Origin: a virus
Taxonomy: Duplodnaviria > Heunggongvirae > Uroviricota > Caudoviricetes
IMG/VR virus record: IMGVR_UViG_3300028456_000002
Span: 1-40,772 of that record
Reading direction: 5' to 3' (one strand)
DNA length: 40,772 nt
Within the stretch, counting starts at the first letter, position 1. Each line of letters begins with the position of its first letter. Of this stretch, positions 20,469-36,384 are shown one piece after another. A model generated the notes under the pieces. It was given only the letters and a program-made list of their open reading frames with translations, had not been told where the DNA came from and searched no databases. The translations under genes and the position numbers were made by a program.

Positions 20469-20765
20469 TTACTCAGTAACAACTGCGCCTTCCGGTAATT
20501 CCATACCGGCAAATACCGGACAACCAGGATGACGATCATCTTCTGTTGCTTCCAGCATTGACTCACCAAACCACTCCGTCGTGGCGCGACCATCAGCAGC
20601 TTTGTAGTGGAGTAAGTACTGGTTTTCGCCATCCGCATACTGCGCGCGGGCTTTAACCTCACCCCATTCATCACTGATGCGCATCTCCACCAGTTGAGAC
20701 AACTCAAACTTAAACGGGACAGTAGCGGCACCAATTACAATCGGTTTGTTTTTTGTTGTTTCCAT
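20469..20765 (-). CDS. Hypothetical protein between lysis genes and cos
   Basis: ORF 20469..20816; likely start METTKNKPIVIG...; no recognisable motif. Confidence 0.45.
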   Translation of the reverse strand: METTKNKPIVIGAATVPFKFELSQLVEMRISDEWGEVKARAQYADGENQYLLHYKAADGRATTEWFGESMLEATEDDRHPGCPVFAGMELPEGAVVTE

Positions 20766-20939
20766 CATCGTCTCCTGATATCGAAGCCCGTCGCCGCACC
20801 GGGCACTGATCAACATTTGAGTATTCGCGGCGACAGAAAGAATTTATTTTATTGAGTAGCCACAAAAACAGAATTTCATGCTTTCCGGACGCTGACGCAT
20901 CCTTCATTTTTCAGCAAAATATTCTGCTCTTATAGGCGA

Positions 20940-22734: not shown

Positions 22735-22809
<75 letters not shown>

Positions 22810-22812
22810 ATA

Positions 22813-22888
<76 letters not shown>

Positions 22889-27763: not shown

Positions 27764-27919
27764 TTACTCCTCAGATTCGTAAGCTGTGAAGACAGCGACC
27801 TCCGTCTGGCCGGTTCGGATTCGTACCTCGCAGAGGTCTTTCCTCGTTACCAGTGCCGTCACTATGACGGTTAAACAGATGACGATCAGGGCGATTAACA
27901 TCGCCTTTTGCTGCTTCAT
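27764..27919 (-). CDS. hok: Hok/Gef family type I toxin (HokD-like), inside an N-terminally extended mok frame 27764..27976
   Basis: MKQQKAMLIALIVICLTVIVTALVTRKDLCEVRIRTGQTEVAVFTAYESEE, 51 aa, single TM helix, near-identical to chromosomal Hok proteins; the 70-aa in-frame upstream extension corresponds to mok. Confidence 0.85.
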   Translation of the reverse strand: MKQQKAMLIALIVICLTVIVTALVTRKDLCEVRIRTGQTEVAVFTAYESEE

Positions 27920-28199
27920 AGCCTGCTTCTCCTTGCCTTTCGGCATGTAAGAGGCTAACCTACATGTGCAAAGCATGAAATTGGCCTCAGATTAATGTTA
28001 AGCGTCTTGCCGGACGCGTAATGTTAACTGGGGCTTTTCTCTATCTGCCGTTGGTGTTCATGCCTGAGACAGATAGCCTCAAGCACCCGCAGCAATTCTA
28101 CTTAACTATCCTTTTCCCGCAAATCGTTTTTATCCCCAGCGGCAAATCGAATACACCACCAGCGCCACTGCCATCGCGATTCCTACTGTTGTGAATGCC

Positions 28200-32730: not shown

Positions 32731-33559
32731 GGTTTACCCCTTTGCTGACTGGTTTAACCTGCGCCCTGACGTGATTTACGTGACGGGCGAATTTCTGCTC
32801 CCACTGAATCTGCGTAAACACTTTCCCCTCCGCTGCCCAGTAGTCCCGGAAGGCGGCAAGTTCAGCAGGTGTAAATTCTGTCTCCGGCAAAGCCATCCCC
32901 CACAACGCAGCCCGTCGTCGAAAATCCCGTGACGGATACCAGCTATCGCTCATCGGGAATTTTCCGATGGGTTCGCTCAGGCCATCCAGGAATACAGGGG
33001 GGGCTGCCTGTAACGACAAAACCTCCTGCTCACTGGTCGGAGCACTCTCGCGTGCGTTATGTGTGGGGTTTAGATCTTTGGGTTCCTTTGGGTTCCGTGA
33101 TCCGTTTTTGGGTGTCTTTGATGGAAAATTTGGGTGTCTTTGGTTATTTTCCATGCAGCTAAGAGTTCCGTTTTTGGGTCTGTTTTGTGCTGAAACATAA
33201 CCATTTTCGGTACTGTTTTTATTAACAGCACCAATTTTACCCACCTTTAAAGACTCCCGTTTTTGGGTGTATTCAGGCTCGGCAACACTTTCTTCTACAC
33301 CGATAAGTCGGTACACCACAATTTGCTTTGTTTTGCCTTTTCTCTCACCGGTATCAACAATTAACCCAATCTCCATCAGGTGTCGTAAGCTGTCCTGCAC
33401 AGTCTTTTTGTTCAGTTCCGTTACTTCTGCCAGTGCAGATACAGACGGGTATGCACACAAATCGGCACCGCACATATCAGCAAGCCAGGTCAATACAGAC
33501 TTACTGGATGAACTGCCGGTTTTCACCTTTTTAGCCCATCGTAGTGCATCGATACTCAT
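32519..33559 (-). CDS. Replication initiator (O-position) with N-terminal HTH and C-terminal DnaT-like region
   Basis: ORF 32519..33634; likely start MSIDALRWAKK...; central low-complexity PKNG-rich linker encoded by the iteron repeats. Confidence 0.7.
   Translation of the reverse strand: MSIDALRWAKKVKTGSSSSKSVLTWLADMCGADLCAYPSVSALAEVTELNKKTVQDSLRHLMEIGLIVDTGERKGKTKQIVVYRLIGVEESVAEPEYTQKRESLKVGKIGAVNKNSTENGYVSAQNRPKNGTLSCMENNQRHPNFPSKTPKNGSRNPKEPKDLNPTHNARESAPTSEQEVLSLQAAPPVFLDGLSEPIGKFPMSDSWYPSRDFRRRAALWGMALPETEFTPAELAAFRDYWAAEGKVFTQIQWEQKFARHVNHVRAQVKPVSKGVNHAAAPGGTASRAVQEIRAAREQWERENGFISDGNGLEAVGTHGGGLFEPLDPEERGRTFEALDCTDWRDD
33072..33272. promoter_or_regulatory. Candidate origin of replication: iteron-like repeats inside the O-like gene
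   Basis: At least five copies of (C)CGTTTTTGGGTGTCTTT-like units (33099, 33125, 33166, 33255, plus TTTGGGTTCC doublet at 33072) followed by an AT-rich stretch; lambda ori has the same in-gene layout. Confidence 0.55.
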
Positions 33560-34082
33560 ACGAACCCCTGGCAGACATTTGTTTATCTGCAAAGTAATAT
33601 TGATATTGCTGACGATACGCATGCTTGAAAGCAATAGCTTTTTCTATAAGCTCGTCAGTCTCACGTTCCACAACAGATGGATCCGCAAAAAGCAGCCCAG
33701 ACTCCACCACATCGCCATATTCTTTGTTTAATCCGGCGATCATGTACGTAATGCTTTTTCCATCACTGATCTCACGATACAACCTGAAATCACTAATTCG
33801 GATAGCCTCCATAATTGCCGGAATCAGCGCCGTGAATTTTTTCCGCTTATCCCTGGTGTCGATAGCTTTCCAGCGTTCGAATATCTTCACCCGGTTAACG
33901 CCCAGCGCCCGTTGATCAACCTCGCCATCATTAAACGTGACGCGTTGAACATCGATGTTCGGGCGTTCTTTCAGAGCCCAGAATGCTTCCGTGATTAATA
34001 TCGTCGCCTGCTCCTGTGTCATTCCTGGTCGGCACACCCAGGCATCCAGAGCCTCACAAACCTGTTCAGGGGTGATTTTCAT
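33531..34082 (-). CDS. YdaT-like protein (cII-position gene)
   Basis: 183 aa immediately downstream of the Cro-like gene; resemblance to Rac YdaT is from memory only. Confidence 0.5.
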   Translation of the reverse strand: MKITPEQVCEALDAWVCRPGMTQEQATILITEAFWALKERPNIDVQRVTFNDGEVDQRALGVNRVKIFERWKAIDTRDKRKKFTALIPAIMEAIRISDFRLYREISDGKSITYMIAGLNKEYGDVVESGLLFADPSVVERETDELIEKAIAFKHAYRQQYQYYFADKQMSARGSYEYRCTTMG

Positions 34083-34293
34083 TGTTCAACCGCCCCGCCC
34101 GCTTTGCCTTACGATATTCGTCATAAACTTTGGGGTCGTACTGAAGTTCCCCGCCGGATGCCTCTTGCAGGCGCATCGCGCGACCTTCAGGAACCAATTC
34201 CCCCCATTGAGAAACAGCAGATGGATCAACACCAGCAGCTTTCGCTACTTTGGCTTTCGTCCCATAAAAATTAATTACGTCTGATTTAAACAT
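34066..34293 (-). CDS. dicC: DicC-like Cro-type regulator
   Basis: ORF 34066..34320; ...LVPEGRAMRLQEASGGELQYDPKVYDEYRK.KRAGRLNNENH matches DicC from memory; divergent from dicA. Confidence 0.8.
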   Translation of the reverse strand: MFKSDVINFYGTKAKVAKAAGVDPSAVSQWGELVPEGRAMRLQEASGGELQYDPKVYDEYRKAKRAGRLNNENHP

Positions 34294-34370
34294 CACCCCT
34301 CCAAAGTTGAGTTTTCTCAATAGTAATCACTCAAGGAATCTCAAGTCAAGGGTTATTAAGATATCTAAAT

Positions 34371-34778
34371 ATGAACGAGAAAACTTTAGGTCAACGAATT
34401 AGAGAAAGACGCAAACAGGTTGGTTTAAGTCAAAACGATTTAAGCAAAGCTGCTGGCGTATCTGGCTCATCAATTTCACTATGGGAAAGCGACCATACAG
34501 CCCCGCGCGGGCAAAATTTGCATCGCCTGGCTGAGGTATTGCAATGTTCACCAACTTGGATACTGTTTGGTGACGAGGATAAAACACCAGATCCACCAGT
34601 TGCACTCAACAGCGCCTTAGACTTATCGGAAGATGAGTTGGAGATGTTGCGATTGTATCGCGCACTTCCAAAATCAGAGCAGCAAGCACAAATCAGCGAA
34701 CTCCGTGCCCGCGTTGAGAATTTTAATCGCCTATTCACCGAGCTACTAGAAGCTCGCAAACGTAACAAACATCAATAA
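34371..34778 (+). CDS. dicA: DicA-like repressor (HTH, XRE family)
   Basis: 135 aa; ...NLHRLAEVLQCSPTWILFGDEDK... and ...ELRARVENFNRLFTELLEARKRNK closely match DicA from memory. Confidence 0.9.
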   Translation: MNEKTLGQRIRERRKQVGLSQNDLSKAAGVSGSSISLWESDHTAPRGQNLHRLAEVLQCSPTWILFGDEDKTPDPPVALNSALDLSEDELEMLRLYRALPKSEQQAQISELRARVENFNRLFTELLEARKRNKHQ

Positions 34779-34840
34779 CCCCCCTTCACAAATTTTAAAG
34801 CCTTACATTTCAATGTATTGGCTTTATTTTGCATTAAATA

Positions 34841-34897
34841 TTGAGTTTTCTCATTAAAAACACTTGACCAATTTTAATGAGAAAACTAAATTATCAT
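34841..34897 (+). promoter_or_regulatory. Promoter of the dicB operon with a perfect 16-bp inverted-repeat operator
   Basis: GAGTTTTCTCATTAAAA, 13-bp spacer containing TTGACC, TTTTAATGAGAAAACT; candidate -10 TAAATT 17 nt after TTGACC. Confidence 0.55.
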
Positions 34898-34969
34898 ACA
34901 TCAAGACACCGCACGGTGTTCTCAGCAAACAGTTCCGCTACCCCGGCGTTAAGGGGAAATGAGGTCAGC

Positions 34970-35125
34970 ATGGATACTATCGCTCTTGGCAACAGCGAAT
35001 CTCTGGTATGTGGCGTGTTCCCCAACCAGGACGGCACGTTCACCGCGATGACGTATACCAAAAGCAAAACGTTTAAAACCGAAAATGGTGCCCGTCGCTG
35101 GCTGGAAAGAAACTCAGGTGAGTGA
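34970..35125 (+). CDS. ydfA: YdfA-like small protein
   Basis: MDTIALGNSESLVCGVFPNQDGTFTAMTYTKSKTFKTENGARRWLERNSGE, 51 aa, inside ORF 34877..35125. Confidence 0.7.
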   Translation: MDTIALGNSESLVCGVFPNQDGTFTAMTYTKSKTFKTENGARRWLERNSGE

Positions 35126-35126
35126 T

Positions 35127-35702
35127 ATGGATTTCGACACAATCATGGAAAAGGCTTACGAAGAATACTTCGAAGGCCTTGCCGAAGGCGAAGAAGCTCT
35201 CAGCTTCAGTGAGTTTAAACAGGCACTCAGAATAAGAATGTGCTCTCACAATGACGCAGAGCACAAATATGAGAAGCAAAATCAGACCGCAGAAAATTTT
35301 GTTCTGGAACCCGGAGAAACGCTTTTCAAAATTCCCGTTACGTGCCCCATTTGCGGTTTTACATCAGAAGAACTTGACGACTCCTGTAACAATCAGGAAA
35401 CAACCAAGTATGTCGAAGATGATACCGAGTGCGCACGAAGAACGATTATATCCACGAGTCCAAACTCCAGGACCAATAAATCTCACTTTGAGAGGGTGAT
35501 TAATCCACTCCCCCAAACCAATAAAAAAGATGCCGGAGGACAAAAAACCCAATGGAACAACGGGATATCTGTCAAAAAAAGACGTTCCATTAAAGACAAA
35601 CAACGCAGCGCCAACAACTGTAAGCGCTTTATACCAGTAATCAATTTTCATGTTCTTAAGCGGATTTATTGGTGGTTGCGACATTGCTTAATGAATCCTT
35701 AA
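35127..35702 (+). CDS. Hypothetical protein with zinc-ribbon motif (YdfB/YdfC-position ORF)
   Basis: Start taken at MDFDTIMEKAYEEYFEGLAEGEE...; contains CPICGF; track ORF 35085..35702. Confidence 0.5.
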   Translation: MDFDTIMEKAYEEYFEGLAEGEEALSFSEFKQALRIRMCSHNDAEHKYEKQNQTAENFVLEPGETLFKIPVTCPICGFTSEELDDSCNNQETTKYVEDDTECARRTIISTSPNSRTNKSHFERVINPLPQTNKKDAGGQKTQWNNGISVKKRRSIKDKQRSANNCKRFIPVINFHVLKRIYWWLRHCLMNP

Positions 35703-35941
35703 AACTGTGGTGATTTTAAGGATACCACCTCGCCTGACGTGGTTAAAAGCAGGCACACAACACGAAAGCGCACGGCGAAGTTCGTCTCACTGTACTGTGT
35801 CGTTAAATTTAATTCGACCGTGCGCTTCCGGTTGTGGCAACCCGCGAAATGGCGCGGCGGTAAGTATGGCGGGGTTATTCCTTCCCCGTTGAGGACACCG
35901 AGTTGTCAGGTTGACCATACGCTTAAGTGACAACCCCGCTG

Positions 35942-36002
35942 CAACAACCCATGTTGATTACCTTTTGGCGGGTATCCGTTTTTTGTTTTCCCTTGTGATC
36001 CC
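35942..36002 (+). ncRNA. dicF: DicF-like small RNA (divergent) ending in an intrinsic terminator
   Basis: TTTGGCGGGTATCC...GATCCCCGCCCTTTTT resembles K-12 DicF (UUUGGCGGUAUCAG...CUGCCGCCCUUUUU, from memory) in position and 3' hairpin; lies just upstream of dicB. Boundaries approximate. Confidence 0.45.
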
Positions 36003-36195
36003 CGCCCTTTTTAAAGTGAATTTTGTGATGCGGTGAATGCGGCTCAGCGCACGCGGAACAGTTAAAAAGGCCAGTTGACTTCCGTATTGGTTCTTATGGG
36101 TGGGTTCTCTGTATCCGGCGTTAATTGTTAACTGGTTAACGTCACCTGGAGGCACCAGGCACCGTATCACAAAATTCATTGTTGAGGACGCGATA

Positions 36196-36384
36196 ATGGA
36201 AACGTTATTACCAAACGTTAATACGTCTGAAGGTTGTTTTGAAATTGGTGTCAAAATCAGTAACCCTGCATTTACTGAAGATGCCATTAATAAGAGAAAA
36301 CACGAACGGGAGCTATTAAATCAAATATGCATTGTTTCAATGCTGGCCCGTTTACGTCTGATGCAAAAAGGATGCTGGCAATGA
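36196..36384 (+). CDS. dicB: Cell division inhibitor DicB
   Basis: METLLPNVNTSEGCFEIGVKISNPAFTEDAINKRKHERELLNQICIVSMLARLRLMQKGCWQ, 62 aa, near-identical to K-12 DicB from memory. Confidence 0.9.
   Translation: METLLPNVNTSEGCFEIGVKISNPAFTEDAINKRKHERELLNQICIVSMLARLRLMQKGCWQ

Follow-up and report, generated by a model that had tools for sequence, protein, structure and literature searches.

A DicA/DicC-type immunity cassette with its own predicted operator core in a Qin-related lambdoid prophage

In lambdoid phages, switches of the CI/Cro type consist of a repressor gene and a divergent cro gene, with multiple operators at PR- and PL-like promoters, and this arrangement behaves as a bistable switch (PMC10448788). 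In the Qin prophage of K-12, the repressor DicA binds the operator Oc (TTGTTAGTCATAACTAACAA) in vivo, and a single base change abolishes this binding. The neighbouring sites Om and Oa did not bind DicA in vivo, i.e., binding was restricted to Oc (PMC3441716). Chromatin immunoprecipitation with sequencing (ChIP-seq) placed DicC on both sides of dicA, at a palindromic TTNG...CNAA motif (PMC11430063). In phage P22, the repressor C2 recognizes a dyad of 18 bp whose four central base pairs are not contacted but are sensed via the shape of the minor groove; an A-tract centre binds best (PMC4267663).

Here, we describe a related locus in a window of 40,772 nucleotides, i.e., the whole stretch of viral DNA that was analysed (positions 1 to 40,772 of IMG/VR record IMGVR_UViG_3300028456_000002). 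The segment 34204-34898 is likely to be an immunity-specific cassette from a Qin DicA/DicC-type lambdoid prophage, with the motif GAGTTTTCTCA as its presumed operator core. This segment is without nucleotide similarity to K-12 except for one 67-nt patch, is bordered by K-12-like flanks and contains all copies of the motif. Its features are listed in Table 1. The case for the operators is built on sequence anatomy, positional orthology, conservation and covariation, from which we infer binding, the site preference of each protein and the effect on transcription.

Table 1. Coordinates of genes, promoters and candidate operators in and around the cassette (window positions)
Feature	Position	Strand	Description
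Cro/DicC-like regulator gene	34066..34293	-	75 aa; Pfam P22_Cro, E = 1.1e-17; 71% identical to K-12 DicC
Oc-equivalent operator (predicted)	34307..34320 (20-bp frame 34304-34323)		TTGAGTTTTCTCAA; perfect 5-4-5 dyad
cro-like promoter (PR/dicCp-analogue)	34320..34349	-	-35 TTGACT 34349-34344, 18-nt spacer, -10 TACTAT 34325-34320
Om-like weak site	34328..34347		CACTCAAG-GAAT-CTCAAGTC; 2 mismatches (relaxed dyad search)
Oa-like palindrome	34356..34369		TTAAG-ATAT-CTAAA; directly upstream of dicA-like ATG
DicA-like repressor gene	34371..34778	+	135 aa; Pfam HTH_3, E = 1.2e-16; 56% identical to K-12 DicA
Fourth motif copy (doubtful as operator)	34374..34389 (core 34377-34385)		AACGAGAAAACTTTAG; covers codons 2-6 (N-E-K-T-L) of dicA-like gene
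Distal dicBp-like operator (predicted)	34841..34854		TTGAGTTTTCTCAT; ends 9 nt (34855-34863) upstream of -35
dicBp-like promoter (PL-analogue)	34864..34892	+	-35 TTGACC 34864-69, 17-nt spacer, -10 TAAATT 34887-92, sigma-70 score
Proximal dicBp-like operator (predicted)	34877..34890		ATGAGAAAACTAAA; fills -35/-10 spacer, overlaps -10
ydfA-like gene	34970..35125	+	first gene of the operon predicted to be repressed; Pfam DUF1391, E = 1.2e-26
dicB	36196..36384	+	cell-division inhibitor, distal gene of the same operon; Pfam DicB, E = 1.9e-38

The locus shares with K-12 Qin the gene order (ydaT/ydfX-like, cro/dicC-like, divergent dicA-like, then ydfA...dicB), a strong operator at the cro/dicC -10 element, two sites around the TTGACC element of dicBp, the 8-4-8 / 5-4-5 architecture of the dyads and a short, 135-aa repressor of the non-cleavable type. 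In contrast, the inner half-site is TTGAG in the window and TTAGT in K-12, the centres in the window are nearly always A-tracts, and there is an additional, intragenic copy of the core. The K-12 DicA operator core TTGTTAGT-N4-ACTAACAA is not matched by the window core, TTGAG-N4-CTCAA. The recognition helix of the DicA-like protein reads SGSSISLW, as compared to SHVSVSQW in K-12 DicA, and that of the Cro-like protein also differs from its Qin counterpart. Because the recognition helices of both regulators have diverged, the window cassette is, as judged from sequence, of a different immunity specificity from K-12 Qin. It is a known type of system with a new specificity rather than a new mechanism.

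The operon reported in a sequence-only reading as ydfA-dicF-dicB is confirmed by Pfam for ydfA (DUF1391) and dicB, but a canonical dicF is lacking: the Rfam DicF model (RF00039) gave no match at the gathering threshold nor at E <= 1. At the DicF position, in the ydfC-dicB interval, the flanks align to K-12 and the 53-nt body is replaced by divergent sequence, a further difference from Qin.

The closest solved homologue of the DicA-like protein is the N-terminal domain of P22 C2 (ungapped, E = 2e-15), in agreement with an N-terminal helix-turn-helix like that of C2. The P22 operators, six in number, are likewise rotationally symmetric, with outer half-sites that C2 contacts and four central bases, as in the 5-4-5 dyads of the window. 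The half-site sequence differs, and the centre-sensing residues E44 and N46 of C2 are A44 and R46 in the window repressor. Furthermore, C2 is a 216-aa protein described as of the conventional, RecA-cleaved type, whereas Pfam finds helix-turn-helix families only, and no S24 peptidase-like domain, in the 135-aa window repressor. K-12 DicA is likewise without a cleavage site (PMC10448788). Because the window repressor is short and lacks a peptidase domain, induction would probably proceed via an antirepressor, by analogy with Rem in Qin (PMC10448788). The logic of the switch is also that of OR1-3/OL1-3 of phage lambda, but there is no relationship between the operator sequences, the PL-like sites of the window flank the -35 element at a distance of 36 bp instead of lying adjacent at 24 bp, and the repressor is without the cleavable C-terminal domain.

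The 11-mer GAGTTTTCTCA occurs exactly at two places in the whole window, 34309-34319 and 34843-34853, both on the plus strand (0.04 expected; at least two copies in 0 of 100 dinucleotide-preserving shuffles). The reverse copies at 34878-34888 (TAGTTTTCTCA) and 34376-34386 (AAGTTTTCTCG) deviate from the reverse complement of the 11-mer at one and two positions, respectively. The 9-mer core AGTTTTCTC is present in four exact copies, two on each strand and all inside 34310-34887, i.e., within less than 580 bp (0.30 expected; at least four copies in 0 of 100 shuffles of the same kind). Hence, the set of four copies proposed from the sequence is clustered and non-random, but the full motif is exact in only two of them. 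The motif thus defined most probably represents the core of ordinary repressor operators in a lambdoid switch related to Qin DicA/DicC. As read from the sequence, each copy is a complete dyad operator, (T/A)TGAG-N4-CTCA(A/T), not a half-site; the half-sites that had been suggested as targets for mutation are whole TGAG-N4-CTCA dyads, each predicted to accommodate one repressor dimer, and the outer arms vary. A full-text literature search for the motif returned unrelated primers and sequences only, with no earlier description in a relevant context among the papers searched.

The earlier assignment of all copies as DicA/DicC operators is well supported for three of the four, which occupy K-12 Qin positions, leave conservation footprints and covary with the recognition helices; the intragenic copy is doubtful. 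The comparison was based on a scan of genome contigs, which gave 12 loci, and on relatives fetched individually. Eight loci have the same recognition helix as the window repressor (group A: Escherichia, Buttiauxella, Citrobacter, Salmonella and Yokenella). In all eight, the flanks of Oc have diverged while the 12-mer TGAGTTTTCTCA within it is unchanged, and the group also conserves TGAG-N4-CTCA at the distal and TGAG-N4-CTAA at the proximal dicBp-like operator. Seven relatives with other helices (C. braakii, Superficieibacter, Klebsiella, K-12, Serratia, Rahnella and Symbiopectobacterium) have dyads of their own at the same three positions. In other words, the operator sequence follows the recognition helix, with TGAG-N4-CTCA in the eight same-helix loci and other dyads in the seven other-helix loci. 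Variability was expressed as the mean minor-allele count over 51 haplotypes with the same repressor. This value is 0.21 at Oc vs 2.11 in the flanking intergenic DNA, and 0.21 at the proximal operator vs 12.3 and 7.6 in the adjoining spacers; relative to the adjacent spacers, variability in these two cores is lower by a factor of about 10-50. The distal operator, at 0.93, is less conserved than either.

The Oc-equivalent, Om-like and Oa-like sites lie in the 77-bp region between the cro-like and dicA-like genes. The Oc-equivalent operator is placed like the validated Oc of K-12. It takes in the last base of the cro-like -10 element together with the predicted +1 region and is found 14 nt upstream of the cro-like ATG; in K-12, Oc is 16 nt upstream of the dicC ATG. 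Inspection of the group A alignment shows that TAnnnT is kept at the -10 position in relatives. The Om-like site overlaps the cro-like -35 element and combines a degenerate left half with a perfect TTGAG half-site on the right. By inspection, its centre is 24 bp from that of Oc, as in K-12, and group A loci share the block AGGAA.CTCA.GTCAAG. Its strength as an operator is nevertheless doubtful, given that DicA binding to Om was not seen in vivo in K-12 (PMC3441716). Weak sites of this kind cannot be called from sequence alone, because TTGAG-N4-CTCAA with at most two mismatches is not enriched across the window (14 found vs 18.9 expected). The Oa-like palindrome contains a -10-like hexamer, TAAGAT (34357-34362), shows 0 variable columns in 51 haplotypes and is kept in both immunity group A and immunity group B; K-12 has TTAGC-ATTA-GCTAA instead. 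As in K-12 only Oc bound DicA in vivo, the Om- and Oa-like sites may, by analogy, have no function or serve the Cro-like protein alone. Neither was on the earlier list of sites.

The -35 and -10 elements of the dicBp-like promoter are conserved in the 51 haplotypes, and the -35 element and transcribed leader match those of K-12 dicBp. The distal and proximal operators correspond in position to the K-12 sequences TTAGC-TATA-GCATA and TTAGT-CATG-GCTAA, which flank the same TTGACC element 35 bp apart, centre to centre. In the window this distance is 36 bp. It corresponds to about 3.4 helical turns, a spacing that does not clearly favour face-to-face cooperativity.

The suggested mechanism is as follows. 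Each dyad, usually with a TTTT/AAAA centre, would bind one dimer of the DicA-like protein through its P22-C2-like helix-turn-helix, and the A-tract centre would probably be read indirectly via the narrow minor groove, as in the P22 repressor. The Oc-equivalent operator covers the cro-like -10/+1 region, where binding would shut off the transcript of the cro-like, ydaT-like and replication genes. The two dicBp-like operators, which flank the -35 and overlap the -10 element, would keep ydfA...dicB off. A proposed role of this pair in repression of the kil operon gains from the K-12 dicBp layout, the footprints and the covariation; the repression itself is predicted. The Cro/DicC-like protein would act at the same sites and at the weaker Om- and Oa-like ones, probably in a different order of preference, to yield a bistable switch.

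The fourth copy had been placed across the dicA start codon, but the ATG is at 34371-34373 and the copy begins after it. The description of the upstream pair as bracketing the divergent dicC-dicA promoters is weak, because this copy is intragenic, has poor outer dyad bases and is mostly missing in relatives of the same specificity. This copy may be a coincidence of coding or a lineage-specific extra operator. It is possible, though we lean against it, that it is a true auxiliary operator for OR3-like negative autoregulation, specific to E. coli alleles encoding N-E-K-T-L. Its 9-mer core is exact, and one allele (L101, 82% identical) has about 10 substitutions in the first 50 nt of the reading frame and none in the 9-mer; two flanking synonymous changes in this allele turn the site into a perfect reverse-complement copy of the 11-mer (TGAGAAAACTC). 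Furthermore, the absence of a Shine-Dalgarno sequence and the presence of TAAGAT 8 nt before the ATG suggest a leaderless mRNA, which would place the site at about +6 to +16. On the other hand, the outer bases of the dyad fit poorly, with 3 of 5 matching in each half (ACGAG/CTTTA), and the relatives from Buttiauxella, Salmonella and Yokenella, as well as L102, lack the copy although they have retained the other three operators. In Klebsiella, whose operators are of another specificity, GAGAAGACT stands at this place simply because E-K-T is encoded there. Within E. coli, conservation of the copy is confounded by its coding function, and the variability of third positions in the 51 haplotypes gives no power.

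A broader scenario, which we regard as rather unlikely, holds that E. coli alleles have evolved this intragenic operator for OR3-like autoregulation of a leaderless mRNA and that, in addition, Oa is a shared Cro-like site enabling cross-talk. The palindrome TTAAG-ATAT-CTAAA is unchanged across immunity groups whose repressor operators differ, and could be the preferred site of the near-identical Cro-like proteins of these groups. If so, the repressor gene of a heteroimmune prophage could be shut down by the Cro of its neighbour, i.e., there would be cross-talk between co-resident DicA-type prophages.

There is little to recommend the view that the downstream pair is a single unit, whether a long palindrome with its arms as half-sites for one oligomer or a hairpin or cruciform, such as one attenuating transcription that reads through from the repressor gene. 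The inverted repeat itself is confirmed: its 20-nt arms (34840-34859 and 34872-34891) are 95% complementary and 12 nt apart, and the region as RNA folds at -16.2 kcal/mol (z = -6.4). The perfect 16-bp repeat around TTGACC noted previously is indeed there, since 34844-34859 and 34872-34887 are perfectly complementary with TTGACC (34864-34869) between them. However, loci with an identical repressor have CACTCAT, CATTCAT, GCGCCAT or TTACCAT in place of the outer arm TTTTAAT, with the left arm uncompensated, and complementarity is kept in the operator cores only. Because the outer arms vary in this way, the perfect repeat is, on the sequences compared, largely specific to the window. In Yokenella the proximal site is in direct orientation, and in L102 the centres differ. 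The stem is A/U-rich, without a U-tract, and was not called by a terminator scan; its right arm precedes the predicted start of the dicBp transcript, so that a hairpin would be outside that transcript, and a separate conserved terminator-like hairpin is found at 34796-34826. A hairpin or terminator was rejected on the lack of covariation between the arms and of a U-tract.

Two further explanations have very low probability compared with a DicA/Cro-type operator set. The copies could have arisen by chance repetition in A/T-rich intergenic DNA, or could be promoter UP-like elements to which no dedicated protein binds, as the region is A/T-rich, the relaxed dyad shows no window-wide excess and a promoter scan found promoter-like sites no more frequently than in shuffles (the hexamers in Table 1 being consensus matches only), but the observed counts were never reached in shuffled sequence, the 12-mer is invariant across genera, and the sites coincide with a validated K-12 operator and covary with recognition helices. 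It is just as improbable that another prophage regulator, e.g., a YdaT-like CII analogue, is the main protein at these sites: a YdaT-family gene (Pfam) is adjacent and YdaT proteins bind inverted repeats in the Rac intergenic region, but their reported box, TTGATT-N6-AATCAA, has another half-site and spacing (PMC11879457), on which grounds this candidate was rejected; a possible box of that type is found at the ydaT-like start (34072-34089), away from the motif copies, which covary with the DicA-like and Cro-like helices.

The cassette occurs in 797 of 5426 complete E. coli genomes, where it is predicted to govern dicB together with other genes that arrest cell division. With the TGAG-N4-CTCA core, immunity groups of DicA-type prophages may be predicted from sequence, and the core would indicate which prophages sharing a host are able to repress one another's division-inhibitor operons and which are not. 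The relatives also offer a natural series of matched repressor/operator pairs for studies of specificity change in P22-C2-like helices. In RefSeq, the repressor is labelled only as a "helix-turn-helix domain-containing protein" and the operators are unannotated. Among the matches listed in a scan of IMG/VR for the exact 14-mer of the Oc-equivalent operator, most contigs are from environmental metagenomes, not E. coli-type prophage contigs. Elsewhere in the window, a perfect TTGAG-ACAA-CTCAA dyad at 20694 and a site with one mismatch at 20852 flank a gene of unknown function (phrog_1935); with about 1.2 sites of at most one mismatch expected by estimate, this pair is probably due to chance.

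The motif lies in a lambdoid immunity region. Nucleotide similarity to K-12 is 89% up to position 34203, inside the cro-like gene, and restarts at 94-97% from 34899, just past the predicted -10 element of the dicBp-like promoter, i.e., the PL analogue in front of ydfA...dicB. Because similarity is interrupted at 34204-34898, all motif copies fall within an immunity-specific cassette of ~695 bp between conserved flanks, the sharp edges of which reflect classical lambdoid mosaicism, a textbook module swap. The cassette is common: of 5426 complete E. coli genomes, 797 carry it, and its region is also present in phages, e.g., mEp460 and HannyBb; at least 78 IMG/VR contigs encode an identical or near-identical repressor. 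The DicA-like repressor and the Cro-like regulator are 56% and 71% identical to DicA and DicC of K-12 Qin, respectively, with differences concentrated in the helix-turn-helix.

Genes, predicted promoters and putative operators of the immunity region
Feature	Position	Strand	Sequence or remark
YdaT-family gene	33531-34082	-	
P22_Cro-family (cro-like) gene	34066-34293	-	
Oc-position site	34307-20		TTGAG-TTTT-CTCAA, perfect 5-4-5 dyad
Om-like site	34328-47		CACTCAAG-GAAT-CTCAAGTC, one good half-site
Oa-like palindrome	34356-69		TTAAG-ATAT-CTAAA
HTH_3 repressor (dicA-like) gene, divergent	34371-34778	+	135 aa
Distal dicBp operator	34841-54		TTGAG-TTTT-CTCAT
Proximal dicBp operator	34877-90		ATGAG-AAAA-CTAAA
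Predicted sigma-70 promoter, rightward			TTGACC-17 nt-TAAATT (promoter scoring)
Predicted sigma-70 promoter, leftward, intergenic region			TTGACT-18 nt-TACTAT (promoter scoring)
DUF1391/ydfA	34970-35125		
DicB	36196-36384		

In a search of the window, the 11-mer GAGTTTTCTCA was found as two exact copies, both on the plus strand (34309-19 and 34843-53), while the reverse-complement copies are imperfect, with one mismatch at 34878-88 and two at 34376-86. The four DicA/DicC operator copies proposed in a sequence-only reading are all exact only in a 9-mer core, AGTTTTCTC, found twice per strand within 34310-34887. That reading was overall partly confirmed as an observation and partly supported as an interpretation. 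Each intergenic copy appears to be a complete operator in itself. The Oc-position site, i.e., the counterpart of the Qin operator Oc, directly adjoins the predicted -10 element, 14 nt ahead of the cro-like ATG.

Binding of DicA to K-12 Oc (TTGTTAGT-CATA-ACTAACAA) was shown in vivo and is abolished by one base change (PMC3441716); this site overlaps the dicC -10 element, and the dicC ATG follows 16 nt downstream. At K-12 dicBp, TTAGC-TATA-GCATA and TTAGT-CATG-GCTAA flank the same TTGACC -35 element, and the dyads reside at the same places, except that their centers are 35 bp apart in K-12 and 36 bp in the window. Because placements match at both Oc and dicBp, the motif copies correspond in position to the Qin operators but differ from them in the inner half-site bases. 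In K-12, deletion of dicA increases dicBp 22-fold (PMC10448788), and ChIP-seq of DicC placed its strongest binding on either side of dicA, with TTNG...CNAA as a palindromic motif (PMC11430063).

For 51 distinct haplotypes sharing this repressor, minor-allele counts per column averaged 0.21 in the Oc core and 2.11 in the intergenic DNA flanking it, 0.21 in the proximal dicBp operator and 12.3 and 7.6 in the two spacers adjoining it, and 0.93 in the distal operator. The repressor recognition helix, S-x-S-S-I/V-S-L-W, is common to eight loci (immunity group A), i.e., the window, an 82%-identical allele (L101), two Buttiauxella loci, Citrobacter koseri, Salmonella, Yokenella and another E. coli; the Cro-like helix D-P-S-A-V-S-Q-W is common to the seven whose Cro-like sequence was extracted (all but the group-A relative L102). 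At the Oc position, all eight keep the 12-mer TGAGTTTTCTCA unchanged between diverged flanks, and TGAG-N4-CTCA and TGAG-N4-CTAA are kept at dicBp around a conserved -35 element. Loci with other recognition helices harbor different dyads at the same three positions: at the Oc position, TTGTTGAG-TTTA-TTTAACAA in C. braakii, TTGTTAAG-AACT-TTAAACAA in Klebsiella, TTAGC-CATG-GCTAA in Serratia and TTGTTAGA-TTTA-GTTAACAA in Rahnella, and yet other dyads in Symbiopectobacterium. This covariation matches what is expected for operator/repressor pairs and is hard to explain otherwise.

The fourth copy resides within the dicA-like reading frame. It had been described as spanning the start codon, but the ATG is at 34371-73 and the copy begins three bases later and extends over codons 2-6. 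The surrounding sequence (34374-89, ACGAG-AAAA-CTTTA) retains the 9-mer core and three of five bases per half-site. This copy is possibly, though somewhat doubtfully, a lineage-specific auxiliary operator, or else a coding coincidence. L101 differs at about ten positions within the initial 50 nt of the frame, none of them in the core, and the two flanking synonymous changes yield the exact 11-mer. However, the copy is missing in Buttiauxella, Salmonella, Yokenella and L102, where codons 3-5 read E-M-T or E-R-T although the other three operators are kept, and in Klebsiella, with another operator specificity, GAGAAGACT arises at this position simply from coding E-K-T.

The two downstream copies lie in an inverted repeat with 20-nt arms (95% complementary, 16 perfect bp), which are 12 nt apart with TTGACC within the gap. 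The perfect 16-bp repeat reported earlier is therefore present, but largely peculiar to the window, because the outer right arm, TTTTAAT, is replaced by CACTCAT, CATTCAT, GCGCCAT or TTACCAT in other carriers without compensating change in the left arm; the conserved feature is the two operator cores. A hairpin or terminator is not supported: despite a fold of -16.2 kcal/mol, the repeat has an A/U-rich stem and no U-tract, and its arms do not covary. A YdaT-type site, as defined for the CII analogue YdaT of Rac and CP-933P, has another form (TTGATT-N6-AATCAA, with the ATG in the spacer; PMC11879457), which argues against this identity for the motif copies. A chance origin is excluded by the conservation and by shuffling (two 11-mers against 0.04 expected and four cores against 0.30, each count reached in 0 of 100 shuffles).

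We thus regard the motif sites as probable operators of a prophage switch of the P22-C2-like, DicA/DicC type, i.e., a new specificity in a well-known element with an ordinary mechanism, of use mainly for annotation and studies of repressor specificity; binding and regulation at these sites we infer from sequence. The N-terminal 72 residues of the repressor give a gap-free alignment to the DNA-binding domain of P22 C2 (E = 2e-15). As a dimer, the P22 repressor occupies an 18-bp dyad, the four central base pairs of which it does not contact, and senses the center via minor-groove narrowing, mediated by E44 and N46, with best binding to an A-tract center (PMC4267663). Such sensing would explain the conservation of the center although it lies between the half-sites; the motif appears "oriented" because the TTTT center is asymmetric. 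Group-A repressors instead harbor A44/R46, and R46 may extend into the narrow groove of the A-tract. The dicBp operators of L102 have centers TTAG and ATAT, so an A-tract is preferred, not obligatory.

A repressor dimer at the Oc-position site would occlude the -10/+1 region of the cro-like promoter, and dimers at the distal and proximal operators would sit on either side of the -35 element and overlie the -10 element of the dicBp-like promoter, keeping ydfA...dicB silent; the Cro-like protein probably binds the same regions. As in Qin, derepression would come from an antirepressor or from a flip of the switch, because the repressor lacks a peptidase domain. Just past the dicA-like stop, a conserved hairpin with AUUUU after it (34796-34830, -11.3 kcal/mol, z = -3.3) is likely the repressor-gene terminator, separating this gene from the dicBp-like promoter.

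The sequence-only reading did not include the Om-like and Oa-like sites. The former is 24 bp from Oc, the same distance as in K-12. The Oa-like palindrome is invariant in 51 of 51 haplotypes and common to immunity groups A and B, while K-12 has TTAGC-ATTA-GCTAA instead. Because it contains TAAGAT 8 nt before the dicA-like ATG, which has no Shine-Dalgarno sequence, it may double as the -10 element of a leaderless transcript; TAnnAT is kept at this distance in relatives. This arrangement suggests a leaderless repressor mRNA, like that of lambda cI from PRM. Among the loci compared, Oa may follow either the Cro-like helix or the L37/Q37 difference in the repressor.

Around the ydaT-like start codon, TTGAAC-AATGAA-AATCAC (34072-34089, minus strand) resembles the Rac/CP-933P YdaT box, including the ATG within the spacer. 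At 35902-36047 the flanks of the K-12 dicF position are near-identical to K-12, while a divergent sequence (about 35955-36010) takes the place of the 53-nt DicF body, still ending in a GGCGGG...CCCGCC hairpin and then UUUUU. The Rfam DicF model gave no match at this position, and an STnc100 match overlapping 36005-36228 is sub-threshold (34 bits, gathering threshold 47); the sequence may represent an sRNA variant at the DicF position that differs in its seed. A segment not found in K-12 (35228-35744), with the 5' part of ydfA/ydfB on one side and the pre-dicF region on the other, extends the ydfB-like N-terminus to a 191-aa reading frame matching phrog_35040 (E = 5e-141); in RefSeq, the equivalent ydfB is annotated as truncated. 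A second perfect TTGAG-N4-CTCAA (center ACAA) at 20694-20707 and a one-mismatch site 158 bp away (20852-20865) lie on either side of the start of phrog_1935, a minus-strand gene of unknown function; this is a noticeable pairing that is probably due to chance. Elsewhere in the prophage are a sok antitoxin RNA of a hok/sok-type locus (27914-28088) and two tRNA genes (22738-22888).
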